A DNA stretch of 64,000 bases from an uncultured Gammaproteobacteria bacterium (lineage in GTDB: Bacteria > Patescibacteriota > Patescibacteriia > Magasanikbacterales > GWA2-37-8), in the NCBI GenBank assembly GCA_964536615.1, contig CAZHYG010000001.1, forward strand, positions 6,200-70,199, read 5' to 3'. The translations under genes were made by a program, and so were the position numbers. Shown one piece after another: positions 7,065 through 56,870 of this stretch (its first letter is position 1; the number at the start of each line of letters is the position of its first letter). The notes below the pieces were generated by a model that ran no database searches, was not told where the DNA came from, and was given only the letters and a program-made list of their open reading frames with translations.

Positions 7065-7211
7065 TGGGATTTTTCCTGGTTGGGTTGCTGTTATTTATAG
7101 TAAACTAGATTGCCATTTTATTCAAATAGATTATAAACAGGGCGAGTTTGACAATTGGCTGAGTTTTTTGTATACTTTATAAAGTTAAATTAGTGTCAAA
7201 AAAGTACAATT

Positions 7212-7288: not shown

Positions 7289-7402
7289 AGTTATTTCAAC
7301 ATAGAAACTCCACATAAGTGGTGTTTTTTTGTTTTAGTCTAGCGGAAATCGAGCTCACAACTTTTTTACTTTGAGATACCGAGAAGTTCCTCTCTTTGCT
7401 CC

Positions 7403-7424
7403 CTGTGTCCATTTTGTGTCCAAA
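7403..7424 (+). repeat. Tandem TGTGTCCA-N3-TGTGTCCAAA motif (copy 1)
   Basis: The sequence ctgtgtccattttgtgtccaaa recurs in the same orientation at 8501..8524, flanking ORF 7531..8412. Confidence 0.5.
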
Positions 7425-7530
7425 TCTTTGCCGAGCATGTCTGAAGGACATTAATAGCGTTTATTAATGTTTCGGAAGCAAGGTGCGCATCTAGACGAGA
7501 AGGGAGAATTATCTAAACAATCTGGCTTTA

Positions 7531-8412
7531 CTATAATTTAATTAGTTTTTTAAAGTATCTAAAAAGAAATAAGTCTAATTGGACTTTAAATTTATTCCAC
7601 CAGTTAAAATCGAGCCTTTTTATTTTTTGTTTGTCGACCATATTTTCTATAAATGGATAGATTATACTGATATGTTCAAATCCGCCATTTTTTAATGTTG
7701 CACCAGCGCCACCGTTCAAAGAAAAAGAAAGGGTTTCATCTTCTTTTTTATTACCTTTGGAGCTTATTCGTGTAAATATACCTATTATTCCTGGGCTTAT
7801 AGAGGGGCAGGGAATGTACTTTAAGGGTATTATTCCATAGTTAGGATGGTTAAAGGGTATAGTTCCCGTGCTTAAATTCAGCATTCTAATACTTTCTTTT
7901 GGAAGATAAAAAAATTCAAGATTGTAGCTGTAATCATTGTTGTTTCTTGGTTTATTATAAAAATCTACAATCTGTTCAAAGTCATTTATGATAATACTGC
8001 TTTTAATTTTATTTAACGGTGATATTAAATTTTTAGTATGGAAGATAAAAATTGGACCACCGTCGTTATTTCTTTTTTTAAGATCCATACTCTGACTGAA
8101 AATTCCTTTATGACCTTTAAAATATTTATAAAAGCCTGACATTATATCTGTGCCAGAAATATTCACTATTCCGTCAACGTGATGAGTTACTTTAGGTGAT
8201 TTTGAAACTAGCCAATATTTACAATCCTTCATTGGCACGGCGTAAAACCTAGACTTTCTTACATTTTCAGGCGGAATTATCATCTTGATGATAAGATATT
8301 CCTTTGCGTCATTTATTAAATCCTTTACAAAAAATCCACCTTCAGAAGTATAGCCGAGTTTAAAGATTTTATATATTTTTTCCTTACTTTTTATACAGAT
8401 ATCAAATTTCAT
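7531..8412 (-). CDS. Hypothetical protein (293 aa), very AT-rich, inside the tRNA-associated insert
   Basis: Long ORF with no recognisable motif. Its GC is lower than the backbone, consistent with foreign origin. Confidence 0.5.
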   Translation of the reverse strand: MKFDICIKSKEKIYKIFKLGYTSEGGFFVKDLINDAKEYLIIKMIIPPENVRKSRFYAVPMKDCKYWLVSKSPKVTHHVDGIVNISGTDIMSGFYKYFKGHKGIFSQSMDLKKRNNDGGPIFIFHTKNLISPLNKIKSSIIINDFEQIVDFYNKPRNNNDYSYNLEFFYLPKESIRMLNLSTGTIPFNHPNYGIIPLKYIPCPSISPGIIGIFTRISSKGNKKEDETLSFSLNGGAGATLKNGGFEHISIIYPFIENMVDKQKIKRLDFNWWNKFKVQLDLFLFRYFKKLIKL

Positions 8413-8500
8413 ATCCTATAAAGTATAACTTAGCATATTTAAAATCTATTTAAAACCCTCTCCACCACCTTTTCTATATCGCTGTTGGACATCTTAAAAT

Positions 8501-8524
8501 TTGTGTCCACCCTGTGTCCAAAAA
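8501..8524 (+). repeat. Tandem TGTGTCCA-N3-TGTGTCCAAAA motif (copy 2)
   Basis: The sequence ttgtgtccaccctgtgtccaaaa pairs with the motif at 7403..7424. Confidence 0.5.
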
Positions 8525-8640
8525 GTGATGAAATGAAGATTTTTTAACTGGATTTGATAGTGAACGAGAAGCGAATTATTTGCTAGAATTAGCAATAAAA
8601 TAAGGATTATTGCTAAAAATCACAAAATACCGCCCAGCGT

Positions 8641-8661
8641 TTCGAGTCCCGTCCGACCCGC
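8641..8661 (+). repeat. Direct repeat of the tRNA-Asp 3' end (TTCGAGTCCCGTCCGACCCGC), att-site-like
   Basis: Identical 21-mer to 7266..7286, with no tRNA body upstream of it. Confidence 0.7.
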
Positions 8662-8804
8662 ATAGCGGAAAAAATTCAAATTTCAGAATCCCTGCCACAT
8701 GCTGGTAGGGTTCTTTTTTGTATTTGTATGGAGCGTACTTGACCATACGCAAACTTTTTGCTAACATCTTTTGTTGTTGGAACAAACCATGGAGGCAAGA
8801 GGGT

Positions 8805-9053
8805 ATGCGCGCGCAAAAATCAAGATTCTCTAACCACCGCAACTGGCTTCAAGCCGTCGTTCACTGGAACGGCGGTCCGGTCGAGTGTGCCGACCACTTC
8901 AAGTTCGATGACGGTCGGCTCAGGGGGCGGGTCCAGGTCGCCATGACGGTGTACTTCCCGGGCCTCATCGAGCTCGGGGTGGGTGCAACCTTCGGCGAGT
9001 GTGTGGCAGAACTGGAGTCGCGATTTCCCGATCGCTTCAGCGCTTCAGCCTGA
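8805..9053 (+). CDS. Hypothetical small protein (82 aa) at the start of a high-GC block
   Basis: GGAGG SD-like sequence upstream (ggaggcaagagggtATG); GC-rich codon usage with GC3 bias. Confidence 0.35.
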   Translation: MRAQKSRFSNHRNWLQAVVHWNGGPVECADHFKFDDGRLRGRVQVAMTVYFPGLIELGVGATFGECVAELESRFPDRFSASA

Positions 9054-9205
9054 TCGCACCCTGTCATCCATCCGAAACCAACAAGGAGGCAGCCTGGCCT
9101 CGTCGCATTCGTGCGGCGGGGCCTTTTCAATATGTATTCGCAACCTTGACCACAAGGTTCTTTTTTAGTATAAATTTCAGTTAGGTTAACCCAAGGAGAA
9201 GTGCC

Positions 9206-10243
9206 ATGGCGATGATTGATAGTCTTCCGGATAGGATCAAGCCCTATTGTCAGAACCCCGAGCTTACGGAGGTTCTGATCTATAAGATGAGGCTGATGGC
9301 CGCAGGTGAGATGTGCAAGGGTGATGATGTCATTTTGGCGCTACTTGGTCTTGCTGGTTTGGAGATCAAGGATTATCAGGCGCGAGAGGTTGCTCGACAT
9401 CTCATTAAGGTAGGATGGCTTGAGTTGGTTGGGGAAGATGATCGCTACGCTTTCACCGCTCGTGCAAGAAAGTGTAGCCAAGACCCTGCGGTCAAGCAGC
9501 GGTTTGATGAAATCAGCGCCGCACAGGATCGTTCTAGCTCTCGAAACAAGGTTCCTTCACCCAAGTCTGCCCGACTCGATCTCATTAGGAGGGTGGCAAG
9601 CAGAGACGGATCCGCCCCAAACTCCACTAGATCTGGCGGTGTTCCAGGCCTTTCACAGGACAGACTGGATATGTTGTTGCCGTTGTTTGTGGCGACGGAG
9701 GGTGGGAGCTTTTTCGTTGAAGCTGCTCGGAGAGCTAAAGAGCTTGGTTTCAGCACAACTCAAGCGTTCAACGGTACGCTTATGCTGCTCAAGCAAGCAG
9801 GGTGGCTGACGAAAGTTGCATATGGTGTAGTGCAGTGGGATCTGGAGAAGGTCCCGCCGAAGTGGCGTGAAGCGCTGCCAAAAAAGAGCGAGCTGTCTGC
9901 TTCTGAACAGGTTGAGGAAGCTTCTGAAACCAGCGAAGGTGCGGAAGATGGTGGTGGCGCTGTGACAGTTGAAGGCGAGTCTGCACCTGTCTCCGAAGTA
10001 GAGGGGGGCGAGAAACCTGATAGCGAATCGTCTGGTGACGAAGAAGTTGATGAAGATGTTCAGGTAGAAGTTGTGGTTGAGTCAGCGTTGCAGACTGATC
10101 AAATCGGCGAGTCGGAACCGCAGCGATTGTTTGGGTTGTTGTTGGCGGTCACTGTTGAAGGTCTCTACCGTCAGATTGAGTGCATGCCAAGAGAACTCCA
10201 GATCATGGTTCTCAATGCGCTCAATCAGCGGATTAATGAGTGA
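9206..10243 (+). CDS. Hypothetical protein (345 aa) with two similar N-terminal helical modules and a strongly acidic E/D/S-rich C-terminal region; high-GC foreign gene
   Basis: AAGGAG SD 8 nt upstream of the ATG. GC3-rich codons. The internal segments ...VILALLGLAGLEIKDYQAREVARHLIKVGWLEL... and ...FVEAARRAKELGFSTTQAFNGTLMLLKQAGWLTKV... resemble each other and look winged-helix-like. Acidic tail EEASETSEGAEDGGG...DEEVDEDVQVEVVVE. Confidence 0.6.
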   Translation: MAMIDSLPDRIKPYCQNPELTEVLIYKMRLMAAGEMCKGDDVILALLGLAGLEIKDYQAREVARHLIKVGWLELVGEDDRYAFTARARKCSQDPAVKQRFDEISAAQDRSSSRNKVPSPKSARLDLIRRVASRDGSAPNSTRSGGVPGLSQDRLDMLLPLFVATEGGSFFVEAARRAKELGFSTTQAFNGTLMLLKQAGWLTKVAYGVVQWDLEKVPPKWREALPKKSELSASEQVEEASETSEGAEDGGGAVTVEGESAPVSEVEGGEKPDSESSGDEEVDEDVQVEVVVESALQTDQIGESEPQRLFGLLLAVTVEGLYRQIECMPRELQIMVLNALNQRINE

Positions 10244-10340
10244 AGCAGATCCAGAAGGGGTAATTCACTCGTGTTAGGAATTAGGAGGGGTGTGCGGCGA
10301 GCCACATTAAAGCGCTTAATTGGCGTGCTCGCATATCTCA

Positions 10341-10378
10341 AAAACAACTTTCTGTTAGAAGGTTGTTTTTGTTTTTTT
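10341..10378 (+). terminator. Rho-independent terminator
   Basis: aaacaactt-tctgttag-aaggttgttt hairpin followed by TTTTTGTTTTTTT. Confidence 0.6.
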
Positions 10379-10505
10379 ATTTTATCTAGATTTTATTTAT
10401 TTCTTATCTGTATTTGTATCTCAAAATGTATAATTAATTTATAAGGTTTTAAATATGAATATATAAGTATATAAAGGTCGAGTTTTTATTTTTAACTATT
10501 TTTAT

Positions 10506-11136: not shown

Positions 11137-11206
11137 TATATTTTAGAATGAGTTTAATATTGACAAAACAATTTATTTTTGCTAGCTTTGGCGTTAAGGG
11201 GGTGCT

Positions 11207-11572
11207 ATGAAAAAAAATCTTAGCGCAGGAGAGGTCCTTGATCTTCTGGTGCTTGACTTGCTGAAAAGATCCGGTGTAGAGCGCGTTGTGTTTCGGCAAG
11301 TGTACGGCAAGTACCAGTCGCTACTGCGCGAGCACATGCTCTATCCGCTCATTGATGCCATTCTGCTGAGGCTGGGAAAGCGATCTACCGGTCGGCGAAC
11401 CGGCGCAACTAGGCGGTTTCTGGCATTTCTCATGAAAGTTCTGGTGAGCGAGCGGGTTGGGATTGCGATACCGGATTTCAAACCCAATGATTTTTCGCGT
11501 TGGGTTGTCTGGGGGAGTCAGATAAAGACCTGGTTGGAAGCAAGGCAAGCCAAAGACGAGAAGGTGCTGTAG
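11207..11572 (+). CDS. Hypothetical protein (121 aa), GC-elevated
   Basis: GGGGGT SD before the ATG; R-rich central segment; followed by a long hairpin terminator. Confidence 0.45.
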   Translation: MKKNLSAGEVLDLLVLDLLKRSGVERVVFRQVYGKYQSLLREHMLYPLIDAILLRLGKRSTGRRTGATRRFLAFLMKVLVSERVGIAIPDFKPNDFSRWVVWGSQIKTWLEARQAKDEKVL

Positions 11573-11675
11573 TATGGTCGCGCAAAAGCCGCCACCATGC
11601 CAATTATGTTCTAAATATTTTGGAATATAATTGGCTGGCGGCTTTTTTGTTTTATTTATTAAACAGATTACTAGA

Positions 11676-14312: not shown

Positions 14313-14354
14313 AAATAATATTTGTGCCACATGATGCCGTACAAGGCATTTCTG

Positions 14355-14772
14355 TGGAGGTGGCGAGAGTTGAACTCGCGTGTAGATAACTATGACTAAA
14401 CCGTCTACATACTTAGTGTCTCTTGGTGTGTCCTGGGCCAATAAAAGAGGACGAAAATTGGCTCAGCGAGCCGAGGAGACTTCACGATGCGATAATCGGC
14501 ATTACCGCCTCGCTACACTCAATGAATAACACCGTGGTTCGGTTATTGAGCATTGCCGATACGATGTCTCAAATCACGAAGGATCTGAGATAACCAGCAT
14601 GGTTCTTAGGCCATTACTGGAGCAAAGTTGGTGCTGAAAGCGTTAGCTACAGCAGACTTTACTTTTGATAACAAGTTTGCACTTATTATGTTGCTCCGTG
14701 TGATTTACGAGGAAAAGAGCTTCCTCGGTATGCAAGTGTAGCCAGAAGCTCCTATCGAAGCCCGGCACCCCC
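14355..14772 (-). ncRNA. ssrA: tmRNA (ssrA)
   Basis: On the minus strand the 5' end is GGGGGTGCCGGGCTTCGA... The 3' end ACGCGAG-TTCAACT-CTCGC-CACCTCC-A gives a tRNA-like T-arm plus acceptor stem pairing with the 5' GGGGGTG. An internal tag ORF starts at a GCA AAC resume context (ANLLSKVKSAVANAFSTNFAPVMA-stop). It lies immediately downstream of smpB. Confidence 0.85.
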
Positions 14773-24360: not shown

Positions 24361-24492
24361 GTTTCTAATTAGCGCGTCAATGTAATAGTTGATGTGCGAA
24401 CCGGTAACGGTAACACTCGTGCGCTTCGTGTGGTCGAGTGACCTTGCGAAGCAAACGGGAGTGAGGCGCCTTAGATGCGCCTTGGAGGTTCC

Positions 24493-25224
24493 ATGCACAC
24501 GCCTTCCTCGGGTACGCAGCAGATCACTGGCCAGCAGGCCGCCGTCAAGACCCAGGTCATCGATCGTGGCGGCTGGTCGAGCTGGGCCAGGCTCGCCTTC
24601 GTCGCGCTGGCTGTGATGCTCATCACCGGGCTCATCGCCTGGTCGGTGGTGGGTGGCGGCAAGAAGCCGTCCGCCGCGGGTGGCAGCGTCCACCACGCCG
24701 CCGACGGTGGTGTTGCCAGCGACGACAAGCCGGTCGTCGAGGCCACGAAGCCGCCCACGGTCGCGCTCGACCTGAGCCCGCTCAACACGAGCTTGAACGA
24801 GCTCAACACCACCTTGGGTGGCATGGGCGATAGCATCGCCAGCAAGGTCGGCGAGAAGATGGACGAGAGCAACGAGGTGATCGTCCAGAAGCTCGACCAG
24901 CTGCTCGCGCAGCAGGCCAAGCCGGATGATTCGTCCGGTGGCTCGGCAGGGGACAAGACCGACGACACCAAGGTCAACGGTGGCAGTGATGCCAAGCCAC
25001 CGTGCGACGATCATCTCAAGGCGCTCACGATCGAAGATCGTGTTGGCGCGCTAGAGACGTGGCGTACCGGGGTCGACAAGACCCTCAAGCGCCACACCCG
25101 GCAGATTCGTCGGATCAACGACCGCCTCGGTCAGCTCAGTGGTGCGCAGGTCACCGACCTGCCCGGCTACAAGACCGCGGTGGCGACCCACAGCGCTGTC
25201 GTGCACCTGAAGTACGACAAGTAG
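24493..25224 (+). CDS. Membrane-anchored (single N-terminal TM) coiled-coil protein; high-GC foreign gene
   Basis: GGAGGT SD 5 nt upstream. GC3-rich codons. TM WARLAFVALAVMLITGLIAWSVV, then a hydrophilic helical region. The antisense ORFs on the other strand are R/D-rich and judged spurious. Confidence 0.6.
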   Translation: MHTPSSGTQQITGQQAAVKTQVIDRGGWSSWARLAFVALAVMLITGLIAWSVVGGGKKPSAAGGSVHHAADGGVASDDKPVVEATKPPTVALDLSPLNTSLNELNTTLGGMGDSIASKVGEKMDESNEVIVQKLDQLLAQQAKPDDSSGGSAGDKTDDTKVNGGSDAKPPCDDHLKALTIEDRVGALETWRTGVDKTLKRHTRQIRRINDRLGQLSGAQVTDLPGYKTAVATHSAVVHLKYDK

Positions 25225-25573
25225 ATTCCTCCTCAACCAGGCTGTCGTCAGATCGAGAAATCGAACTGACAACGCCTCAAGAGGGGAAGACGGGATGTTC
25301 TTCGCAAGAAGAGCATCCCGGGAGAAAATCATCTTCTTAAAACATATCATGTATTAGGAATATGATAAGCTCTAACAAAGCGAAAAGAAAATATAGTTCT
25401 TTAAAATTAAAAAACAAACAAAAGTAACCGTTGTTCCGTATTTATTATATTTATTAATATATATAAATAAATATATATAGTAAGTACGGAGCGACGGTTA
25501 AAAACACCGTCACCAACAACTCCCAGGCCCAACGGCCTGAAACCGGCCGTTGTGGCCAACCTTTGCCGGCTCT
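25217..25573 (+). repeat. 357-bp intergenic cassette, copy 1 (identical to 26458..26814)
   Basis: Begins at the last codons (caagtag) of the upstream gene. Contains two GNRA-tetraloop hairpins (GTCAGATCGA-GAAA-TCGAACTGAC; GGATGTTCTTC-GCAA-GAAGAGCATCC) and a TATCAT/ATGATA inverted repeat. A 44-bp AT-rich block is flanked by the imperfect inverted repeat aaccgttgttccgta/tacggagcgacggtt, followed by GACGGT-taaaaac-ACCGTC and CAACGGCC-tgaaacc-GGCCGTTG hairpins. Confidence 0.85.
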
Positions 25574-25601
25574 AATGGAGCCAGAATTGCGAGTTCAGTC
25601 A

Positions 25602-26465
25602 ATGAAGACGATCCTTTGCGTGATGATGCTTGCCATCGCAACCTTCGGCGGCAACGCCAAGGCACAGCCCCGGGTCACCGTGACGCAGGACGTGCCGCCC
25701 CCGGAGCCCTGTGCTCCGGGCCAGCCGCGTGACACGGTCTCGCACGACGCCTCGGGCGTCGACGAGACCATCAAGGTCAACGGCCTCGAGACCCCGTGTC
25801 TCGAGCTCACGGTCCACCTGCCCAAGGCGATGGATCCGGCGCTTGCGCCGATCATCCCCACGGCCCCCATCGACAACGATGGTGGCCTGGATCGCCACGG
25901 CACGAGCACCAACGATCTCATCGAGATCTCGCGCACGGCTGCCTCGGCGGCCAACGAGGTCGCAAAGGCTCAGGCGCGGTGGAACTTCGGGCTGGCGAGC
26001 CAGGTGCTCGCGGTCTCGCACAAGGGCACGACCGCCTCGTATGGCCTCCTCGGCCTGTACGGTGTACGTGCCACCCGGGCCACGCTCGTTCAGCTGCAGG
26101 GTGGTCTCGGCAAGGACAGCGAGGGGAATCTCGCTATCGGCGCCGCGCTCATGGCGGGATACAAGGTCGGTGAGCGTGCTGCTGTTGGCATCGCGCTCAC
26201 CGGCACCGATTCCATCGATCAGAGGGGAGACAAGGATCGCGAGGTCCTCATGCTCCGTTCGGTCGGGGTCGGCCCCAGCGTCACGATGACGTTGGGCAGC
26301 ACCGTCAACGTCACCATCGCTGGTGGCGTGGCATGGAGCGGTAAGCCCATTGATGGGCGTCGTGTGGACGGTGTCCTGGTCGAAGAGCCGGGGCGTTCTT
26401 ACGCCTTCGGTGGCTACGGCACGGTCACGCTGAACCTCGGCCTCAAGGGCCTGTTCAGCAAGTAG
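25602..26465 (+). CDS. Secreted protein (signal peptide, beta-rich C-terminal half); high-GC foreign gene
   Basis: MKTILCVMMLAIATFGGNAKA-QP signal peptide. Alternating hydrophobic beta-strand-like pattern (VTMTLGSTVNVTIAGGVAWSG...YGTVTLNLGLKGLFSK). GC3-rich. Confidence 0.6.
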   Translation: MKTILCVMMLAIATFGGNAKAQPRVTVTQDVPPPEPCAPGQPRDTVSHDASGVDETIKVNGLETPCLELTVHLPKAMDPALAPIIPTAPIDNDGGLDRHGTSTNDLIEISRTAASAANEVAKAQARWNFGLASQVLAVSHKGTTASYGLLGLYGVRATRATLVQLQGGLGKDSEGNLAIGAALMAGYKVGERAAVGIALTGTDSIDQRGDKDREVLMLRSVGVGPSVTMTLGSTVNVTIAGGVAWSGKPIDGRRVDGVLVEEPGRSYAFGGYGTVTLNLGLKGLFSK

Positions 26466-26814
26466 ATTCCTCCTCAACCAGGCTGTCGTCAGATCGAGAA
26501 ATCGAACTGACAACGCCTCAAGAGGGGAAGACGGGATGTTCTTCGCAAGAAGAGCATCCCGGGAGAAAATCATCTTCTTAAAACATATCATGTATTAGGA
26601 ATATGATAAGCTCTAACAAAGCGAAAAGAAAATATAGTTCTTTAAAATTAAAAAACAAACAAAAGTAACCGTTGTTCCGTATTTATTATATTTATTAATA
26701 TATATAAATAAATATATATAGTAAGTACGGAGCGACGGTTAAAAACACCGTCACCAACAACTCCCAGGCCCAACGGCCTGAAACCGGCCGTTGTGGCCAA
26801 CCTTTGCCGGCTCT
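26458..26814 (+). repeat. 357-bp intergenic cassette, copy 2
   Basis: Base-for-base the same as 25217..25573 by reading, again starting at the caagtag stop region of the preceding gene and ending at gccggctct just before the next gene's RBS. Confidence 0.85.
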
Positions 26815-26834
26815 TCGGAGCCATGGAGAAAGAC

Positions 26835-28185
26835 GATGAAGAAGCTGATGATGTATCTGGTGTGCGTGGCGGCCCTCACGGGCTGCCTCCTCGAGAATGG
26901 CAAGGTCGTCGACGAGACGACCGACGCTGGTGTCGACGCCTCCGAGAGCAAGTGTACGGTCACCATCCGAGCGACCGACAGCATCGCCAACGAGAACGGC
27001 GACACCGCCATGGTGCAGTTCGAGCGGAGCAACTGCTCCCTCGACAAGCAGCTCGAGGTCAAGTTCGACCTCAGCGGTACGGCCAGCAGCTCCGACTACG
27101 TGGGGCTCGCGGAGTGGTACGCCCTCATCCCTGCCGGTCAGACCGAGGCCACCATCGTGGTGGTCCCGTTCAACGACACGATCGACGAGAGCGACGAGAC
27201 CCTGATCTTCACCATCCGTCCGGAGCCCCACCTCATCGTGGGTGCGCCGGCCGCGGCGACGGTGACGATCACCGATGACGACAGCCCGCCGCCCACGCCG
27301 TTCCTGAACTTCAGCTGCAGCCCCAACGGCATCACTGCCGGCGGTAGCAGCACCTGCACGTGGACTTCGAACGCCACGGCGTGCACGCTCTCCGGTGGCC
27401 AGTTCGGCTCCGGGGTGGCTCAGGCGGGTAACGGTTCGGTCGTGGTGAGCAACATCACCACGACCACGACTTTCGGCATGACCTGTAACAACGGTCAGAC
27501 CAAGTCGTCGACGGTGACGGTCAATACGCAGCAGCAGTGCACTGGCAACGGTACCCTGACGGCGAACACCCTGTTCATCGTCGTGGGGAGCCCCATCGAC
27601 TTGGACGCGACGTTCAACTGTCCGTCCGGTACGATCGCCCGAGTCGAGTTCAAGGTGGGTAGCACCACCCTCTGCACCGACACGAGCGCGGCCTACCACT
27701 GCGACTGGGACAATGCCACTGTCGGCACGCACACCGTCATCGCGACGGCGTACTCGGCGAGTGGCACCCAGCTCCAGCAGACCAACCCCCTCCAGATCGA
27801 GGTGGCGCAGACGTCGCAGCAGGTGTCGTGTCACGGCCTCGGCCTCTACTTCTCCAACACCCAGGTGAACAACATCACCCGGTGCACGAAGTGGAGCGCT
27901 ACGGGGTCGGGTACCGACATCGCCAAGTCGACGTTCGTGGATGGCGGTCTGGGCGCTTGCGCCCTGACCTGCTACGACCTCACGGGTAACACGGTCCTGC
28001 CGCTGGCGGTGACCGGTGTCTGGCTGCAGAACGGAACGAGCGACGTCACCCGGTGGTACACCAGTGGCTGCGCGCGGCTCCCGTGGCACCCCGCTGCCGA
28101 GCCCGACCAGGCTGGTGGCGCCTGGGACCGGCTTTGCGATCGTTCGGTCGCCAGCCTGAGTGGTCCGCCCAACACCAACCAGTAG
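26835..28185 (+). CDS. Lipoprotein with a Calx-beta-like domain and Cys-rich Ig-like repeats; high-GC foreign gene
   Basis: GGAG SD. MKKLMMYLVCVAALTGC lipobox (LTGC). Calx-beta-like motif DYVGLAEWYALIPAGQTEATIVVVPFNDTIDESDETLIFTI. Many Cys and Thr/Ser-rich beta segments. Confidence 0.6.
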
Positions 28186-28502
28186 TGGTGGACAAAGGTT
28201 CCCGAACCTAAAAAATCGGAAATGTCCGCGCCATTGATGTGAATCGAGGGTGTGGCAAGAGTCTTATCCGCGGGTTCTTCGGAACCCGCGCGATTGAATC
28301 AGTTTCTTACTTGTATAGAATAGGGAACTGATACTGATCGAAAACAATTAATACTAGTGTCAAAAAATAGAAAGTAGGTTACAATAGACCTACTTTAAAA
28401 TTATCATTCGAGATTTGAAAATAGTTTATTTTTAAATCTCGGGCAATAATACCCGACAAGTTCGGCTCATTTCCCGCCTGATGCGGGTGAATCGGGGTTG
28501 CA

Positions 28503-29249
28503 ATGAAGATTTTCTGCTGTCTGGTGCTAGTCATCACCGCTTGCTCCTTTAACCCGTCGGGTTCGCTCGACGGAGAGGTAGATGCAATGGGTGATGGAGT
28601 AGTCCTCACCCCCGACGCCCAGATCGATGCGCCCATCGATGCTCCGCCGCCCTTGGTGGCGAGCATTGTGGGAGACTGCTACGTCCGCCCGCAGGCTCCG
28701 CCTGCCGACGGGGTGACCGTGGGTCGTCCCAAGACCCTGGTCTGCCTCGCGGAAGCGAGGCAGTGTACGGCGACCAACAGCCGCGTTCCGAGCGCTCCGC
28801 TTCCCATGACCCCACCGGTCCAACCTGGTGTGGGCGAGTGGGAGGTTTCGTTCACCCCGGTGTTCACCGGTGTGAACGAGTTCACCTTCACCTGTGAAGG
28901 TGATGTGGGTAGTGTGGCGACTGCAGGACCGCTGGCACTTCATGCCATGTCCTTGCAGATCACCGAAGGAGTTTCGGTGATCGACCAGAGCCTCGGGCAG
29001 TACCAACTGCTCAATCGCAACGGTCGAATCCGGCTCGTCTGGGGTATCCCGGACGATCCAACGCCCCAAACGTGCGGCAACTCGGTTTCCGGGCTGCCAA
29101 CGGTCAACATCGGAAGTGGAGGGCGTCCGTGCGTGGGCGAAATCTACGACCTGCTTGTTCCAACGAACGGACCAGCGGGGACAGTGGTTCTTCGCTTCTC
29201 GTCGGCGTTGTATGTGGGGTCTGTGTCTGTTGCAGTGCCGGCCTCGTAG
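28503..29249 (+). CDS. Lipoprotein, paralog 1 of a tandem pair; high-GC
   Basis: MKIFCCLVLVITAC lipobox-like signal. 611 bp (28604..29214) are identical to 29474..30084. Confidence 0.6.
   Translation: MKIFCCLVLVITACSFNPSGSLDGEVDAMGDGVVLTPDAQIDAPIDAPPPLVASIVGDCYVRPQAPPADGVTVGRPKTLVCLAEARQCTATNSRVPSAPLPMTPPVQPGVGEWEVSFTPVFTGVNEFTFTCEGDVGSVATAGPLALHAMSLQITEGVSVIDQSLGQYQLLNRNGRIRLVWGIPDDPTPQTCGNSVSGLPTVNIGSGGRPCVGEIYDLLVPTNGPAGTVVLRFSSALYVGSVSVAVPAS
28604..29214 (+). repeat. Tandem duplication unit, copy 1 (611 bp identical to 29474..30084)
   Basis: Direct comparison of the two blocks shows identity through ...cggcgttgtatg, then divergence; the period is 870 bp. Confidence 0.85.
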
Positions 29250-29387
29250 GGTTGGAGGGTGTAGTAAGAGGAAGAAATTCGAGGTGTAGACAGTGTTGGC
29301 AGGGTATCTTCCTCACAGAAATTTTTCCATCATTATTTGGTGGTGGAAAATAAGCTGTGCAAATCAAGCAAGAGGCCAGGAGGCCAC

Positions 29388-30119
29388 ATGTCTCTCAGAA
29401 CATTGTTTGCAGTGTTGTTGACGATAGTTTGTGGTGGCGGATGTAATCTGGTCTTCGGACTGGATGAGGTTCGCCTCACCCCCGACGCCCAGATCGATGC
29501 GCCCATCGATGCTCCGCCGCCCTTGGTGGCGAGCATTGTGGGAGACTGCTACGTCCGCCCGCAGGCTCCGCCTGCCGACGGGGTGACCGTGGGTCGTCCC
29601 AAGACCCTGGTCTGCCTCGCGGAAGCGAGGCAGTGTACGGCGACCAACAGCCGCGTTCCGAGCGCTCCGCTTCCCATGACCCCACCGGTCCAACCTGGTG
29701 TGGGCGAGTGGGAGGTTTCGTTCACCCCGGTGTTCACCGGTGTGAACGAGTTCACCTTCACCTGTGAAGGTGATGTGGGTAGTGTGGCGACTGCAGGACC
29801 GCTGGCACTTCATGCCATGTCCTTGCAGATCACCGAAGGAGTTTCGGTGATCGACCAGAGCCTCGGGCAGTACCAACTGCTCAATCGCAACGGTCGAATC
29901 CGGCTCGTCTGGGGTATCCCGGACGATCCAACGCCCCAAACGTGCGGCAACTCGGTTTCCGGGCTGCCAACGGTCAACATCGGAAGTGGAGGGCGTCCGT
30001 GCGTGGGCGAAATCTACGACCTGCTTGTTCCAACGAACGGACCAGCGGGGACAGTGGTTCTTCGCTTCTCGTCGGCGTTGTATGGCGGATCAATCAGTGT
30101 GGAGGTCCCGGCCTCGTGA
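29388..30119 (+). CDS. Lipoprotein or secreted protein, paralog 2 of the tandem pair; high-GC
   Basis: AGGAGG SD 5 nt upstream of ATG (MSLRTLFAVLLTIVCGGGC). The body is identical to paralog 1 except the N-terminal signal region and the last ~10 residues. Confidence 0.6.
   Translation: MSLRTLFAVLLTIVCGGGCNLVFGLDEVRLTPDAQIDAPIDAPPPLVASIVGDCYVRPQAPPADGVTVGRPKTLVCLAEARQCTATNSRVPSAPLPMTPPVQPGVGEWEVSFTPVFTGVNEFTFTCEGDVGSVATAGPLALHAMSLQITEGVSVIDQSLGQYQLLNRNGRIRLVWGIPDDPTPQTCGNSVSGLPTVNIGSGGRPCVGEIYDLLVPTNGPAGTVVLRFSSALYGGSISVEVPAS
29474..30084 (+). repeat. Tandem duplication unit, copy 2
   Basis: Identical to 28604..29214. Confidence 0.85.
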
Positions 30120-51839: not shown

Positions 51840-53369
51840 ATGAAAAATAAATATTATCTCACCACTGCCATTCCATACGCCAATGCCAAGCCGCATATTG
51901 GCCATGCCTTAGAATTTTTGTATACCGATGTGATGGCCCGCTACCAGCGCCTGCTGGGCAAGGATGTGTATTTTCTTACTGGCACCGATGAGCATGGCCA
52001 GAAAATGCTTAAAACTGCCAAAGAAGACGGTAAAACCGTAGAAGAATTTGCCGCAGAAAAATCCGCGCAGTTTTTGCGCTTAGCCGATGAGTGGAATATT
52101 TCCAATAATGATTTTATTCGTACGACCGAAAATCGCCACATGCAATCTGCACAAGAGCTCTGGAAAAAATCTCTGGCCAATGGTGATATCTATAAAAAAA
52201 CCTATACCGGCTTATACTGCGTTGGCTGTGAATCGTTTAAGGTAGAAAAAGATTTGGTAGATGGCAAATGCCCAGACCATAACCGCGTGCCGGAAACTTT
52301 GTCCGAAGAAAATTATTTTTTTAAACTTTCTAAGTACCAAAAACAAATAGAGGGTTTATTTGAACAAAATCCAAATTTTGTCTATCCGGAACATCGTTAT
52401 AAAGAAATGAAAAATATTCTTAAAAATGGCTTGGAAGACGTGAGCATCTCAAGAGTAAAAGAAAAACTGCCATGGGGCGTGCCGGTGCCAGATGACGAAA
52501 ATCAGGTGATGTATGTTTGGTTTGACGCGCTTACCAATTATATCTCCGCGCTGGGGTGGGGAAGGCAAGACAACGAGCTGCTTAACAAATTTTGGCCGGC
52601 CGATGCTCATGTAATTGGAAAAGAAATTAATCGGTTCCATTCGCTCTTATGGCCAGCGATGCTTTTGTCTGCAGGTGTGGAAGTGCCAAAACAAATTGCG
52701 GTGCATGGCTGGATAACCGTAGATGGTCAGAAAATGAGCAAAAGCGTAGGTAATGTAATTGACCCTCTGGAACTAGTGCAAAAATATCCTTTGGAAGCCG
52801 TGCGATATTTTTTGATGCGTGAAATATTGTTTGATAATGATGGTGATTTTTCGTATGCCAAATTTAATGAACGTTACCAGGCAGATTTAGCAAATGGTTT
52901 GGGCAACCTTACCAATCGCGTACTTGTTATGATTGAAAAATATTGCGACAGCACAATTCCGGAAACATCCAAAGTAGACAACGAAATTATTGAACAGGTA
53001 TCTAAAATTTATGCGGAATACCAGCAGGGCATGGAAGCTTGGCGGTTTGACCGAGCCTTGGAATCAGTTTGGAAATTTATTACATATTGCGATCAAATGA
53101 TTTCAGACAGGCAGCCATGGGCAATGATAAAAGCAGGCAAAGAAGACGAAGTAAAAGATTTGTTGCATCATTTGGCAGAAGGGCTTCGTCATATTGCTGT
53201 AATGATTTTGCCTATCATGCCTGAAACAGCCGAAAAAATCATGACACAGCTAGGTTTGGATTTTGCCGCTGAATGCGCTAAGCCTTTATCTGAATTGCAA
53301 AATTGGGTACAATTAGTGGTAGGAAATACTATTAAAAAACCCGAACAGCTCTTCCCGCGTTTGGGATAA
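51840..53369 (+). CDS. metG: Methionyl-tRNA synthetase
   Basis: HIGH (PHIGHA), KMSKS (QKMSKSVGN), and a Zn knuckle CVGC...C. Confidence 0.95.
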   Translation: MKNKYYLTTAIPYANAKPHIGHALEFLYTDVMARYQRLLGKDVYFLTGTDEHGQKMLKTAKEDGKTVEEFAAEKSAQFLRLADEWNISNNDFIRTTENRHMQSAQELWKKSLANGDIYKKTYTGLYCVGCESFKVEKDLVDGKCPDHNRVPETLSEENYFFKLSKYQKQIEGLFEQNPNFVYPEHRYKEMKNILKNGLEDVSISRVKEKLPWGVPVPDDENQVMYVWFDALTNYISALGWGRQDNELLNKFWPADAHVIGKEINRFHSLLWPAMLLSAGVEVPKQIAVHGWITVDGQKMSKSVGNVIDPLELVQKYPLEAVRYFLMREILFDNDGDFSYAKFNERYQADLANGLGNLTNRVLVMIEKYCDSTIPETSKVDNEIIEQVSKIYAEYQQGMEAWRFDRALESVWKFITYCDQMISDRQPWAMIKAGKEDEVKDLLHHLAEGLRHIAVMILPIMPETAEKIMTQLGLDFAAECAKPLSELQNWVQLVVGNTIKKPEQLFPRLG

Positions 53370-53906: not shown

Positions 53907-54761
53907 ATGTTTGACACTCATTGCCACGTTCAATTTAACGGATTTAAAAACGATGCTTTGGAAGTTGTAAAAAAATGCGGAGAAAAAAAGATGGTTTTAA
54001 ATTTAGTTGGTACGCAAAAAGATACCAGCCGCGCCGGAGTAGAGATGGCCGAAAAATTTCCATTTACATATGCTAGCATTGGTTTACATCCGGTCCATTT
54101 ATTTTCTACCCATATAGACGAAGAAGAGAGCAGTTTTTTGTCGCGTGAAGAAGATTTTGATTACGATTATTATAAACAGCTAGGGCAGAGCAAAAAAGTT
54201 ATTGCTGTAGGGGAGTGCGGTTTGGATTTGTACCGTATGCCCGAAGGCAGGACGCGTGAAGAAGTTTTGGAAAAACAAAAGAAAACATTTGCTTTGCAGT
54301 TTAAACTCGCTCAGGAGCTTGGAGTGGCGCTGGTAATTCATGTTCGGGAAGCGCATGCGGAAATGATAGAACTGCTTAAAAGTTTAATGCAAGAATATAA
54401 CATGCTATCAGTGCGCGGAACGGTGCATTGCTATACCGGAGATTGGAAATTTGCTGAACAATACTTAAGCTTAGGGTTGCATATTGGTTTTACCGGTGTA
54501 ATAACATTTCCTCCTAAAAAATCAGATCCTCAGACTCAGACTGATCTACTAGAAGCGGTAAAAAATATTCCGCTAGAAAAAATTGTGGTGGAAACCGACG
54601 CTCCGTATTTGGCGCCAATTCCTTTTAGAGGCAGGCGCTGCGAGCCGCTAATGGTAGAACATACCATCAGAAAAATTGCCGAATTAAAACACGTGTCTTT
54701 TGAAGATGCTGAGCGTGCAACTACGGACAATGCGCTTAAGCTGTTTAATATTACTCTATAA
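53907..54761 (+). CDS. tatD: TatD-family metal-dependent hydrolase
   Basis: MFDTHCHV... plus conserved His/Glu/Asp positions (HVRE, HCYTG, ETDAPY). Confidence 0.85.
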   Translation: MFDTHCHVQFNGFKNDALEVVKKCGEKKMVLNLVGTQKDTSRAGVEMAEKFPFTYASIGLHPVHLFSTHIDEEESSFLSREEDFDYDYYKQLGQSKKVIAVGECGLDLYRMPEGRTREEVLEKQKKTFALQFKLAQELGVALVIHVREAHAEMIELLKSLMQEYNMLSVRGTVHCYTGDWKFAEQYLSLGLHIGFTGVITFPPKKSDPQTQTDLLEAVKNIPLEKIVVETDAPYLAPIPFRGRRCEPLMVEHTIRKIAELKHVSFEDAERATTDNALKLFNITL

Positions 54762-54772
54762 AAATGCGAATG

Positions 54773-54800
54773 CCCTGCCTCGAGAATCGAGAGCAGGGCG
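54773..54800. terminator. Bidirectional hairpin terminator (GCCCTGC-ctcgagaatcgaga-GCAGGGC)
   Basis: Serves tatD (+) and the convergent small minus-strand gene; an A/T-run lies on the minus-strand side. Confidence 0.55.
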
Positions 54801-54826
54801 AGGGACGACAGGTGGGGCGGTAGGGC

Positions 54827-54982
54827 CTAGTCCAGGTAGGTGCGCGGAGTGTCACCTTTCTTGTTGCGGATTGCTCCGTAAAAGAATAGAACCCCCACTA
54901 CCGCGCAGAACGTAGCTACCTGCGCACCGTCGAGCAGGAACTGCACTGCTCGGTGCCTCAAATTGTCTATGGTCGTCGCCAT
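54827..54982 (-). CDS. Small hydrophobic peptide (51 aa, one TM helix); type-I-toxin-like or holin-like candidate, absent from the ORF track
   Basis: Strong SD AAGGAGGA 3 nt before the ATG. MATTIDNLRHRAVQFLLDGAQVATFCAVVGVLFFYGAIRNKKGDTPRTYLD. Hairpin terminator downstream. GC-elevated segment. Confidence 0.4.
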   Translation of the reverse strand: MATTIDNLRHRAVQFLLDGAQVATFCAVVGVLFFYGAIRNKKGDTPRTYLD

Positions 54983-55274
54983 GGATCCTCCTTGTGTTTC
55001 TACCGTAGCACAACCAAGATAGAGAAGTAAATAGCCATAAAATCGCTTAAAAGCAAAAAACCCGCACCAATCTTTCTGGCTGTATGGTACAGCACTAGAT
55101 TGATGCGGTCGGAGCAGCCTTGGAAAAGCTGGTCCACTTTGTCATGCCGGGTTCTTCTACCTTCCCTTGATGAGGCAGAGGAAGAAGAGCGCCCAGTCTT
55201 TCATGGTATTTGGCCACATGAGCATGTATCCCATATATCATATTTTACCAAAAAAGTCAATACCTAAACCAAAC

Positions 55275-55304
55275 AAAAAACCACGCCTTTAAGCGTAGTT
55301 TTTT
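55275..55304. terminator. Bidirectional rho-independent terminator
   Basis: aaaaaCCACGCctttaaGCGTAGtttttt. Confidence 0.55.
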
Positions 55305-55408
55305 GTTATGTTTGTTCTTTAACGAAGTTCGCCGTCATCGCTTTGTAGACAATATAATTATCTATAAAGCGACTCGTGACGGCGAACATGTTAATTGGTC
55401 TGAAGCAT

Positions 55409-55711
55409 TCAGCCGATGACTGGCTGATCGCCCGCAGGAACCCGCCGGCCATTGACCTCCCGGGCCACCACCACCGTTCCCACATCCACCACCGTTGTCT
55501 CCCCCCAGTCATCACCCCAGAGATCGTCGATCGGAGGCTCCTCCGCCTCCATTTCGATCACCACCATTGCCGGAGGCGAAGGGGGAGAGTGCAGAGGGGT
55601 AGGCTTCTTTTCCGCAGAGAAAGTGACAAAATCGCCACTTCTCGCACGCGGCATCTCATCGTCGAGAGCCGCATCAACAAACCAGTCCAGTTCTAGATCG
55701 ATGTCTTCCAT
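55409..55711 (-). CDS. Hypothetical acidic protein (100 aa; DDLWGDDWGE-type acidic/Pro-rich sequence)
   Basis: GAGGAG upstream. Preceded on the minus strand by a consensus promoter and a leader with alternative hairpins. GC-elevated. Confidence 0.4.
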   Translation of the reverse strand: MEDIDLELDWFVDAALDDEMPRARSGDFVTFSAEKKPTPLHSPPSPPAMVVIEMEAEEPPIDDLWGDDWGETTVVDVGTVVVAREVNGRRVPAGDQPVIG

Positions 55712-55851
55712 CTTTATCTTTTCTCCTCAAACTGAAGATGCGTGCATCCCCTTGGGTGCGCGCGGGATCGGGTTAAAGTAACCTAAGGGGAGAAAAAGCG
55801 TTAAATTACCGCTCTTTTTCCCCTTGACTACTCATTGTTAAAGAACAACTC

Positions 55852-55880
55852 AATATATAGCTATTTTGCTATTTTGTCAA
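55852..55880 (-). promoter_or_regulatory. Near-consensus promoter TTGACA-N17-TATATT on the minus strand
   Basis: The reverse complement reads cTTGACAaaatagcaaaatagctaTATATTg, directed toward the gene at 55409..55711. Confidence 0.5.
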
Positions 55881-55952
55881 TAGATATATACCCATAATAG
55901 GTTTAAAAGTTACATTTTTGGCTAAAATAAGCAATTTTAGCTCTGTTTAAAC

Positions 55953-55984
55953 AAAAAAAGCCTTGACTTTCAAAGCTTTTTTTG
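55953..55984. terminator. Bidirectional rho-independent terminator
   Basis: aaaaaaAGCCTTGActtTCAAAGCTttttttg, located downstream of the minus gene 56029..56427. Confidence 0.55.
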
Positions 55985-56028
55985 TCTTGTGGGTGCCCGT
56001 GAACCCTTGTTCACCGAAGCACCCAACC

Positions 56029-56427
56029 CTATTTGCCACCAAGCACCTGGCGCAAGCATGCAGTCCTGATCCGACTAGCATCAGGCAGACCTTCACCTCG
56101 CAAGATTTGCCAAATGCCCATTGAACCACCTTCCAAAAGCGTAGTCAGGCTAAAGATCTTGCCCTTTTTAGGGCCTTCCAAGATCTTACACCCGATCCTA
56201 GCCTCTCCAGGGGGTTGTGGAATGCCAGCAGATTCTGAGCTCAAGAACTCAATTTCAATCAGACAACTCCATTCGGGAGGGGTAATTTCCCCAATCAGGA
56301 TTTGCGCTGCACCACCTTCTTGAGCGGAGCGAACACTGGCCTCCAAACCGTAACCACGAAAAGTCTTCAGAATTTTTTCCAGCATACTCCCTCGCATTGT
56401 TGCGGGTTTTTGGTAGGGTTTTACCAT
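56029..56427 (-). CDS. Hypothetical protein, possibly GlnB/P-II-like fold
   Basis: C-terminal GEARIGCKILEGPKKGKIFSLTTL weakly resembles the P-II T-/B-loop region (GKIGDGKIFV). Low confidence. Start among several in-frame Met codons. Confidence 0.3.
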   Translation of the reverse strand: MVKPYQKPATMRGSMLEKILKTFRGYGLEASVRSAQEGGAAQILIGEITPPEWSCLIEIEFLSSESAGIPQPPGEARIGCKILEGPKKGKIFSLTTLLEGGSMGIWQILRGEGLPDASRIRTACLRQVLGGK

Positions 56428-56570
56428 TCAAAGCCATCACTGGCCAGAACAGATTATCTTGAAACTAGCAAAAAAACTGCCTCTGGTCAATATATGGGGG
56501 TAGATTTTTCAAAATCCTTGACTTTGTCAAGAAATATATGTAAAATAATCGCGTCATTTGTTTCTTAGGT

Positions 56571-56870
56571 ATGCAAGATTCACAATCACCCAAACCAACA
56601 AGTCGAGACTATCAAATTCTCGGCCTAAAGATAGTAGGGGATTTTGGCGCTTCTATTGCCATACCGGTAGTAGTATTTGTTCTCATCGGTCAATATTTTG
56701 ATAAGAAATATAACACTGGGCCCTGGTTAACAATTTTGGCCTTCATTATCTCGGCTTGCATTTCAGCAAAAATAATACACCAAAAAGCCAAGAGATATGG
56801 AGCGGAATACAAAACACTCAATGACGCAAGCAGAATAAATAAAGATATTTCAGAAAAAAATAATTTTTAG
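56571..56870 (+). CDS. AtpZ/AtpI-like small membrane protein preceding the ATP synthase operon
   Basis: Two TM helices; position immediately upstream of atpB. Confidence 0.5.
   Translation: MQDSQSPKPTSRDYQILGLKIVGDFGASIAIPVVVFVLIGQYFDKKYNTGPWLTILAFIISACISAKIIHQKAKRYGAEYKTLNDASRINKDISEKNNF

Follow-up and report, generated by a model that had tools for sequence, protein, structure and literature searches.

Between tatD and the operon for the F-type ATP synthase, at positions 54762-56570 of the 64,000-nucleotide stretch of contig CAZHYG010000001.1 analysed here (the window), lies a block of small genes which, judged by comparison with its relatives, is a natural, selectively maintained and clade-specific cassette of four independently signalled small genes, one of them anciently polymorphic. 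The non-coding framework of this cassette (promoters, leader hairpins, the palindrome that follows one open reading frame (ORF), and terminators) is better conserved than its proteins, and its messenger RNAs (mRNAs) are predicted to be unusually structured and closed by pairing between their 5' and 3' ends. By all the profile and sequence searches reported below, no component is part of a described family, and the analogies with type I toxin mRNAs, dual-function small RNAs (sRNAs) and allelic loci hold in part. The four units, A to D, are co-oriented on the minus strand and monocistronic, each with its own predicted sigma-70-type promoter and intrinsic terminator, and are made up of the following features:

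56462-56490, minus strand: candidate promoter P_A, TTGACC-17-TAGTTT, read from the sequence and below the threshold of the promoter scan
56029-56385, minus strand: ORF1, an orphan alpha/beta protein of 118 amino acids (aa), the length at which its relatives are called
55948-56024, minus strand: terminator region A, a GC-rich hairpin (56024-55991) followed by an A/U hairpin (55985-55951) with a U-run
55852-55880, minus strand: promoter P_B, TTGACA-17-TATATT, found by the promoter scan with 11 of 12 positions matching
55837-55848, minus strand: 5' arm of the closing stem, UUGUUCUUUAAC, 100% complementary to 55323-55312 (inverted repeat I5)
55776-55833, minus strand: leader hairpin H1 (AAGGGGAAAAAGAGCG ... 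CGCUUUUUCUCCCCUU), 20 bp, present in the minimum-free-energy (MFE) fold of all alleles
55740-55763, minus strand: small hairpin before the ribosome-binding site of ORF2, with a covarying stem and the constant loop CCCAAGGGGA
55409-55711, minus strand: ORF2, a very acidic, hypervariable orphan protein of 100 aa, from its reading frame and from comparison
55327-55387, minus strand: H2, an imperfect palindrome of 61 nt directly 3' of ORF2, present in every MFE fold
55312-55323, minus strand: 3' arm of the closing stem, GUUAAAGAACAA, the complement of the 5' arm
55271-55305, minus strand: terminator B (A-run, hairpin, U-run), seen in the folds and with one compensatory pair
55232-55260, minus strand: promoter P_C, TTGACT-17-TATATG, read from the sequence
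55055-55225, minus strand: unit C, an RNA of about 170 nt with three hairpins and a long terminator hairpin, from its fold and conservation
55157-55225, minus strand: probable leaderless mini-ORF of 22 aa, MLMWPNTMKDWALFFLCLIKGR, with a conserved ATG offset
54998-55010, minus strand: palindrome TGCTACGGTAGAA, possibly the -10 region of ORF3 or an operator, its assignment as a promoter being uncertain
54827-54982, minus strand: ORF3, a 51-aa peptide with a single transmembrane (TM) segment, from its reading frame, its conservation and its Shine-Dalgarno (SD) sequence AAGGAGGA at 54993-54986
54800-54812, minus strand: fold-back element CCUGUCGUCCCUC in the 3' untranslated region (3'UTR), predicted to pair with the SD and start region of ORF3
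54761-54799, minus strand: terminator D, a hairpin (54799-54772) that includes CTCGAG, then a U-run, seen in the fold

A preliminary description made from the letters of the window had proposed that small genes of the minus strand, each expressed on its own, form a compositionally distinct block that separates tatD from the atp operon, and in this the present analysis agrees with it. It had counted three genes: the ORFs at 54827-54982, 55409-55711 and 56029-56427 are indeed present, while a fourth unit, between ORF2 and ORF3 (55260-55055), had been overlooked. The hairpin terminators that it placed behind each ORF are visible, with their U-runs, in the folds and supported by conservation with compensatory changes; a simple terminator scan flagged none of them, because their U-runs pair with upstream A-runs or their loops are too large.

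The same cassette is found between tatD and atpZ at five related loci (L005, L006, L007, L008 and L016; 75-91% DNA identity) and, in the same gene order, in a distant lineage (L013-L015 and L017) whose TatD is 87% identical and whose synonymous divergence (dS) from the window is 1.2-2.4 for tatD, atpB and cvpA. Both gene order and GC bias are retained in relatives, including the lineage with saturated dS. Among contigs representing one genome per species in GTDB, the TatD relatives include those of a near-identical metagenome-assembled genome (MAG; 96% identity) and of a 'Parcubacteria group bacterium' MAG (71%), which marks the DNA as a CPR/Patescibacteria chromosome. The cassette is absent from the more distant loci L009-L012: L011 and L010 keep the tatD-atpZ-atpB synteny and carry in the gap a gene for a 67-aa charged protein (6847-7050) and a 205-aa ORF (1024-1641), respectively, and L009 is rearranged, with a gene for a 907-aa surface-type protein after tatD (6932-9655). 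This suggests that the gap after tatD is a hot spot for accessory genes in Parcubacteria. The distribution indicates that the cassette itself is specific to one genus-level clade of Parcubacteria (Candidate Phyla Radiation, CPR) and is vertically maintained there.

That the block might be a cloning vector, a construct contaminant or an assembly artefact had been raised in the preliminary description, which noted CCATGG, GGATCC and CTCGAG sites. All of them are there, with the NcoI and BamHI sites overlapping (CCATGGATCC) at the start codon of ORF3 and the XhoI site in terminator D. However, the window has 19 sites for NcoI, 5 for BamHI and 8 for XhoI, and the relatives keep the cassette and vary the sites, the overlap reading GGAGGACCCATGG in L008 and GGAGGATCCTATGG in L005, L006 and L016. 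In several ENA and Logan samples, 6 contigs in all carry ORF1 in exactly its 132-aa reading, so that identical DNA was assembled independently, and in megablast and blastn searches the cassette matched none of 72,556 plasmids (PLSDB, by megablast) and none of 50,697 phage genomes. Recurrence across samples and relatives, sites that are not conserved and the lack of plasmid or phage matches exclude contamination for practical purposes, and we give an artefact next to no weight.

ORF1, ORF2 and ORF3 all show an excess of substitutions at third codon positions. The ratio of nonsynonymous to synonymous divergence between strains (omega, Nei-Gojobori) is 0.11-0.31 for ORF1, 0.35-0.56 for ORF3 and 0.38-0.42 for ORF2 within allele types, against 0.04-0.05 for tatD, 0.04-0.06 for cvpA, 0.01-0.05 for atpB and 0.09-0.23 for atpZ. 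These values and the third-position excess argue that ORF1-3 are real genes evolving 3-10 times faster than tatD, atpB and cvpA. They are also orphans. Searches of Pfam (E<=1), NCBIfam, PADLOC and PHROGs gave no meaningful match for ORF1-3, for the peptides of unit C or for the L013 versions; against PADLOC-DB, the 7 proteins together drew 0 families at E<=1. Among 5.8 billion clusters, word-indexed searches recovered clade members only. An exhaustive HMMER profile search with ORF1 against 1.84 billion representatives added the L013-type homologue and, apart from one spurious repeat protein, likewise stayed within the clade. The homologues of ORF3 are confined to the same clade (82-84% identity), and a search of the literature on small or hypervariable proteins of the CPR found nothing relevant. 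Hence a place for this block among the known families of defence proteins, toxins or holins, as had been considered, is not supported: no profile matched and no antisense RNA was found.

The composition of the block had been described as 50-55% GC against about 37% in its flanks; we measured 47.5% for 54762-56570, with flanks at 40.7% and 37.9%, in a window of about 42% overall. The rise is patchy, the ORF bodies reaching 50-60% and the promoter and terminator spacers 25-30%, and the GC at third codon positions (GC3) is 0.64-0.76 in ORF2 and ORF3 versus 0.31-0.42 in the neighbouring genes. Across the 64-kb sequence, 11% of same-size segments reach at least the GC of the cassette, because much stronger islands (60-67% GC) lie at 24.4-30 kb; its composition is therefore not unique in this genome. 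This region (24400-30000) carries plus-strand orphan genes of that composition with AT-rich spacers between them. Its spacer at 25218-25517 is an exact repeat of 26459-26758, and 28593-28892 and 29463-29762 are 98% identical; a single product (26791-28185) has Pfam domains, Big_7 and a weak Calx-beta, and at least one N-terminus (MKTILCVMMLAIATFG) resembles a signal peptide. Further GC-rich patches (52-57%) lie at 8800-10400 and 11200-11600, where the ORFs at 8718-9053, 9206-10243 and 11207-11572 have no Pfam family. GC-rich, lineage-specific genes within AT-rich frames seem to be a genome-wide trait.

High GC and GC3 in the ORF bodies, orphan proteins and a site that varies among Parcubacteria are what would be expected if the cassette were a recently acquired foreign fragment, such as the remnant of a prophage, of a plasmid or of host DNA, without an adapted function. 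The promoters and terminators are nevertheless host-like, AT-rich and strongly conserved, similar GC-rich orphans stand elsewhere in the genome, and tblastn with ORF2 and ORF3, together with searches of phage, plasmid and IMG/VR collections, yielded no match to either the DNA or the proteins. Purifying selection acts on the genes, and the GC bias has not been ameliorated, since it is present in lineages in which housekeeping dS is saturated. The horizontally acquired fragment proposed in the preliminary description is thus, if taken as a recent arrival, not supported, and we consider a fragment of this kind improbable.

The evidence for a conserved RNA scaffold comes from the comparison of its segments. 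Among close strains the non-coding segments are 86-98% identical and ORF1 and ORF3 75-89%, and ORF2 is unalignable; saturation at synonymous sites has not erased the promoters, the hairpins H1 and H2, the 12-nt arms or the terminators, which can still be made out in L013 and L017. When five sequences of the unit B scaffold are aligned, standard pairs make up 96.7% of cells, versus 43-53% when the partners are slid, and 4 compensatory double changes occur: H1 has one, the lower and the upper part of H2 have one apiece, and the last is in the terminator. Fold z-scores are -9.2 for the ORF2 transcript, -5.4 for ORF1, -2.3 for ORF3 and -2.7 for unit C, with -0.1 for cvpA and -1.9 for atpZ as control mRNAs. 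A scan of 53.5-57.5 kb by E-value and a scan of the whole window at gathering thresholds found no Rfam family in the cassette; two sub-threshold matches were terminator look-alikes, the weak ones at terminator B among them. The sole Rfam-level RNAs of the window are a transfer-messenger RNA (tmRNA; 14352-14772, minus strand, tag ANLLSKVKSAVANAFSTNFAPVMA) and a tRNA-Asp (7213-7289, plus strand).

P_B, claimed in the preliminary description as a minus-strand TTGACA-N17-TATATT promoter, was confirmed at 55880-55852 and is identical in all relatives, including L013 and L017. Downstream of it, both arms of the closing stem are invariant at every locus and are predicted to pair with a probability of about 1.0 in 5 alleles with unrelated ORF bodies; the predicted transcription start site (TSS) at about 55846 may trim 1-3 nt of the 5' arm, and a 9-bp stem still forms. 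Pairing extends to 95% of the cells of H1, where one pair is compensatory; in H2, 98% are paired, with two compensatory pairs relative to L013 (C-G to U-A, in both halves). The stem of the small hairpin covaries (GCGCGCA/UGCACGC in the window, GCACGCA/UGCGUGC in L016, GCGCA/UGCGC in L013), and the L005/L006/L008 allele group has a different hairpin in its place. The leader had also been read as two mutually exclusive hairpins sharing AAGGGGA. We rejected this riboswitch-like reading: CCCCUU pairs with the upstream AAGGGG (55825) at a probability of about 1.0 and with the downstream copy (55753) at about 0, blocking the upstream copy costs 15 kcal/mol and yet the alternative hairpin fails to form, and the downstream copy is missing from one ORF2 allele group. 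A repeat or mobile element was likewise rejected for the scaffold, whose motifs occur once only in the window. A 20-nt motif of the leader, TTGAGTTGTTCTTTAACAAT, has exact copies in three IMG/VR contigs (L018-L020); they lie within coding sequences of unrelated AT-rich phages, and we take them to be chance matches.

Structure of this order would also fit GC-rich bodies that are primarily structured non-coding RNAs, their ORFs being incidental or secondary: the two lowest z-scores (-9.2 and -5.4), a scaffold conserved above the ORFs and a unit C whose 3' two-thirds are conserved and ORF-free all point that way. However, three of the ORFs combine the third-position excess with an omega below 1, and the ORFs are retained in all lineages despite saturation; the ORF2 alleles have protein motifs in common in DNA that cannot be aligned, a strong SD precedes ORF3, and Rfam gave no match. 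A primarily non-coding role is, in our judgement, very unlikely.

ORF2 is as acidic as had been described (isoelectric point 4.1, net charge -16), and it is the variable part of the cassette. Block 55775-55388 cannot be aligned at the DNA level between the window and L005, L006 or L008, whereas the leader is 90-96% and the downstream palindrome and terminator 95-98% identical. Three allele types exist (window/L016; L005/L006/L008; L013/L017), with 33-40% aa identity between types. All are acidic, with 11-19 more acidic than basic residues, and have a GC3 of 0.63-0.68, and all share an N-terminal helix motif, (E/A)(L/F)(E/D).E(V/I)(E/D)(A/N)A(F/L), and the motif GW(D/G)(D/E)E(T/K)T.VD; the L008 type matches the L013 type at E 3e-7, and the window type is marginal (E 0.06). 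The polymorphism must predate the strains or have been imported, since strains that differ in ORF2 type have a housekeeping dS of merely 0.3-0.6. The breakpoints vary by strain, L005 having more of the leader in common with the window than L008 has, which fits homologous recombination in conserved flanks and not site-specific recombination.

A hypervariable gene within conserved DNA is what pherotype and immunity loci show, and the cationic, Trp-containing and probably leaderless 22-mer of unit C is reminiscent of leaderless bacteriocins. The cassette might accordingly serve peptide signalling or resemble a bacteriocin locus, with ORF2 as the precursor or as what sets specificity, its alleles being 'pherotypes' and the small hydrophobic peptides the active or immunity parts; the conserved flanks, the anciently diverged alleles, the mosaic breakpoints and the conserved Trp-acidic motif of ORF2 speak for it. 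Against this, the cassette contains no gene for a processing enzyme, a transporter or a receptor, no signal or double-glycine leader is present, ORF2 and peptide allele types do not co-segregate, and no family matched; such a system strikes us as distinctly improbable here.

Unit D carries the 51-aa peptide. The SD claimed ahead of it is present (AAGGAGGA-TCC-ATG), as is the single TM segment (Kyte-Doolittle mean over 19 residues of 1.94, residues 20-38). The reading frame is retained in 9 sequences, the motif FFYG.IRNKK after the TM core is conserved with L013, and the first four codons are nucleotide-invariant in 7 sequences. Upstream, the palindrome TGCTACGGTAGAA is conserved in 9 sequences, taking the perfect form TGCTACTGTAGCA in L013 and L017; downstream, terminator D is conserved in L005, L008, L016, L021 and L022. 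In each of 5 sequences folded (window, L016, L008, L005 and L013), the 3'UTR is predicted to reach back and pair with the start region. In the window, the fold-back element is predicted to pair at a probability of 0.5-1.0 with the G of the start codon and the next six bases (GGCGACG) and of 0.6 with SD bases 2-5; the window group pairs GGCGACG with UGUCG(U/C)C, and L013 pairs ACAAUGA with UCAUUGU, a different sequence. The likeness to a type I toxin or a holin that had been seen in this peptide is therefore sustained for the TM peptide and the design of its mRNA, and not for a toxin or holin family or an antisense RNA. A holin in a phage lysis cassette was tried and rejected: no endolysin or spanin neighbours it (metG, cvpA, tatD and the atp operon do), no PHROG match was significant, and phage DNA and proteins gave no match. 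On the plus strand, 54762-54830 holds a hairpin after tatD that lacks a U-run, and transcripts of tatD may, to judge from this arrangement, read into ORF3 in antisense.

The overlooked unit C is 92-96% identical among strains with a housekeeping dS of 0.3-0.6, has one compensatory pair and matches no Rfam family. P_C is conserved at all loci, in L013 and L017 as TTGACT-17-TATTTT, and the transcript would end with a hairpin at 55108-55062 and a U-run at 55060-55055; its 3' two-thirds are conserved without any ORF. A leaderless micro-ORF would be the most economical reading of the 5' end: its ATG (55225) lies 7 nt after the -10 hexamer, and L013/L017 also have an ATG behind the equivalent hexamer, at a distance of 8 nt. 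Within the window group the 22 codons read MLMWPNT(M/A)KDWALF(F/I)LCLIKG(R/K), with a stop (TAG versus TGA) kept across a 1-nt indel and with changes that are mostly synonymous or conservative, in an ORF too short for dN/dS. In the L013 group its place is taken by another ORF, of 48 codons, in which L013 and L017 differ by 4 synonymous changes and 1 Arg/Lys change. We also considered unit C as an antitoxin or regulator and rejected it, as its duplex energies and longest complementary runs with the ORF1, ORF2 and ORF3 mRNAs are no better than those of shuffled sequences (P 0.7-0.98 for the ORF3 mRNA). The 3' arm of its terminator (55056-55071) shows 94% complementarity over 16 nt to the 5'UTR of ORF1 just upstream of the SD (56396-56411; inverted repeat I2), which is probably due to chance because it is not conserved in L013.

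The third protein of the preliminary description, given as 119-132 aa and possibly P-II-like, is ORF1, and both statements need correction. It is a protein of 118 aa whose start at 56385 sits behind GAGGGAG; the 132-aa reading is an upstream extension, since 118 aa is the length called in relatives and the longer frame does not survive a 1-nt indel. P_A has a counterpart in distant L013 (TTGACC-17-TAACTT), and terminator region A, which contains inverted repeat I3 and whose two hairpins are both in the MFE fold, is conserved in L005-L008 and L013. The 5'UTR (..CCCUACC..) is predicted to pair with the region of the stop codon (..GGUGG.AA.UAGGG..), and the strains show the series C:G, U:G, U:A at one pair, as would fit such a stem. 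As for P-II, ORF1 resembles GlnB/GlnK in length only (about 112-118 aa): it does not match PF00543 (Pfam E<=1) or NCBIfam, no amtB or glnA lies nearby, and its AlphaFold2 (AF2) model is alpha-beta5-alpha3 (helices at residues 2-11, 80-85, 87-96 and 103-114; strands at 16-21, 27-31, 41-47, 64-70 and 77-79) and not the ferredoxin-like beta-alpha-beta-beta-alpha-beta with T-loop of P-II proteins. Foldseek with this model found no significant neighbour in the Protein Data Bank (PDB) or BFVD and no P-II match in the PDB. A profile search of PDB sequences returned nothing except a weak motif of S28e, an archaeal/eukaryotic ribosomal protein: over about 20 residues, residues 60-80 of ORF1 (about 56208-56146), GEARIGCKILEGPKKGKIFS, resemble the S28e beta-hairpin motif GEA.QIQCRVLEGRDKGRVIT, at an E of 0.7-1.1 that is not significant and makes of it a lead and not a match. 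This stretch hints, at the sequence level, at an RNA-binding hairpin.

The position of unit A brings in the neighbouring operon, which opens with an AtpZ-like gene (56571-56870, plus strand) followed by atpB; on the other side, tatD (53907-54761, plus strand) is preceded by a gene for a CvpA-family protein and, before that, by the gene for MetRS, metG (51840-53369). The atp promoter, TTGACT-17-TAAAAT, lies at 56518-56546 on the plus strand, and a minus-strand TTGACA (56530-56525) overlaps its spacer. Just upstream of it, inside the 5'UTR of ORF1, a terminator-like hairpin and U-run on the plus strand (56391-56406) could halt antisense read-through across the cassette ahead of the atp operon. 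With the cassette directly upstream of and divergent from atpZ-atpB, the promoter region of ORF1 abutting that of atp and this adjacency kept at all cassette-bearing loci, the four genes could be accessory subunits or regulators of the ATP synthase (small membrane peptides and an inhibitor-like protein), and other bacteria are known to have small peptides with a regulatory effect on ATP synthase. However, Parcubacteria exist that keep the tatD-atpZ-atpB synteny without the cassette and with unrelated genes in its place (67 aa in L011, 205 aa in L010), omega in the cassette (0.1-0.5) is 3-10 times above that of atpB, tatD and cvpA, and one would not expect a subunit of a conserved machine to have undergone ancient replacement of its alleles as ORF2 has. 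For these reasons we regard a role in ATP synthase as quite unlikely.

Comparison with known systems shows both similarities and divergences: (i) With toxin-antitoxin (TA) modules of type I such as hok/sok, aapA/isoA, tisB/istR and fst, ORF3 shares a length below 60 aa, one TM segment, a monocistronic message, a strong SD, a terminator stem-loop and, according to the folding model, long-distance 5'-3' pairing over its start region. A strong SD, a terminator stem-loop and 5'-3' pairing are the mRNA determinants that define type I toxin loci, and the mRNAs of type I toxins are recognised by, among other traits, an SD or start sequestered through long-distance pairing of this kind (PMC8594479). 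In contrast to these loci, ORF3 has no detected antisense or adjacent complementary sRNA and no sequence relation to a toxin family, and it sits in a conserved four-gene cassette instead of a two-gene locus. (ii) Like the dual-function sRNAs RNAIII/hld, SR1/SR1P and SgrS/SgrT, unit C is a structured RNA of about 170 nt with its own promoter and terminator, a 22-codon ORF at its 5' end and an ORF-free 3' domain; unlike them, its ORF is apparently leaderless, it has no pairing target among the mRNAs of the cassette and no Rfam family, and its body is replaced by a different 48-codon ORF in L013/L017. (iii) With allelic specificity loci (agr and comQXP pherotypes, bacteriocin-immunity, capsule), the cassette has in common a diverged block (55775-55388), mosaic breakpoints and types older than the strains, but one small acidic protein varies and no cognate enzyme or receptor varies alongside. 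(iv) The ORF2 message, in which the invariant 5'-3' stem stacked on the hairpin of about 27 bp behind the ORF would form one long double-stranded element around it, is reminiscent of RNase III stems and retroregulation (rRNA stems, lambda sib, T7 early mRNAs), a likeness derived from folding. (v) A variable ORF followed by an imperfect palindrome of attC size, with GTTAAAG and CTTTAAC motifs nearby, recalls integron cassettes; in these, however, attC moves with its cassette, whereas H2 is constant across ORF2 alleles, the units bear their own promoters, the breakpoints vary and the core-like motifs are inverted around ORF2, 513 nt apart. We therefore rejected H2 as an attC site.

How the cassette would work can be outlined as follows. 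It would be a conflict or accessory system (toxin-like peptides, at the interface with phage or host) controlled mainly after transcription, a proposal in which our confidence is low. One or two membrane-active peptides, those of ORF3 and unit C, would be kept silent post-transcriptionally: the full-length ORF3 mRNA would be translationally masked by its 3'UTR lying on the SD and start until it is refolded or processed at its 3' end, as in type I toxin mRNAs. In the ORF2 transcript, the invariant 12-nt stem would bracket two hairpins and the variable ORF, whose alleles would be exchanged by homologous recombination within the conserved scaffold under diversifying or balancing selection, and the fast-evolving acidic ORF2, together with ORF1, would act as partner or specificity components.

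Several observations weigh against this reading. The closing stem of ORF2 never varies, is thus without covariation and could equally be an inverted repeat at the DNA level, and end-to-end pairing is a frequent outcome of MFE folding; the TSSs, the terminators, the RNA pairings and the leaderless ORF are all predicted. The AF2 models are of moderate confidence for ORF1 (predicted local distance difference test (pLDDT) 70.9) and unusable for ORF2 (pLDDT 47). In the 22-aa peptide, the run of hydrophobic residues falls short of the length that a TM helix needs. No antitoxin RNA, antisense or acting in trans, was found: the promoter scan showed no plus-strand promoter within the cassette from which an antisense RNA to ORF3 could start, nor did Rfam give a match for one. 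No component matched PADLOC or a toxin family. In the few strains at hand, the type of ORF2 is not linked to particular alleles of unit C, ORF3 or ORF1, which argues against a tight cognate pair. On balance, the package as a whole (a maintained cassette, closed transcripts, a conflict or interaction module) is tentative, with a somewhat less than even chance of being right, and the doubt is mostly over function. A bolder version would make the ORF2 unit (promoter, closing stem, two flanking hairpins and terminator) an RNA panhandle scaffold for expression, into which anciently diverged specificity alleles are swapped by recombination and kept by balancing selection for interaction with host, phage or kin, as might suit an episymbiotic member of the CPR; it would be linked to two membrane-active peptides gated solely by the folding back of their mRNAs, which would amount to toxins of a type I-like design that do without antisense RNA. 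This we think unlikely, and put it forward as speculation drawn from the sequence.

The genomes of the CPR are tiny, so that a 1.8-kb block of orphan micro-genes that stays intact across saturated divergence is probably useful to its bearers. What sets it apart is an RNA framework that stands above the proteins in conservation, an ancient polymorphism of an acidic gene, a probable leaderless gene of 22 codons and a TM-peptide mRNA whose start is predicted to be masked by the message itself. Should the peptides prove membrane-active and ORF2 be what sets specificity, the cassette would represent a new type of compact module for conflict or for interaction with a host, with toxin-like gating that dispenses with antisense RNA; otherwise, it would provide well-delimited small proteins and RNA structures for the metatranscriptomic and small-protein annotation of CPR genomes.

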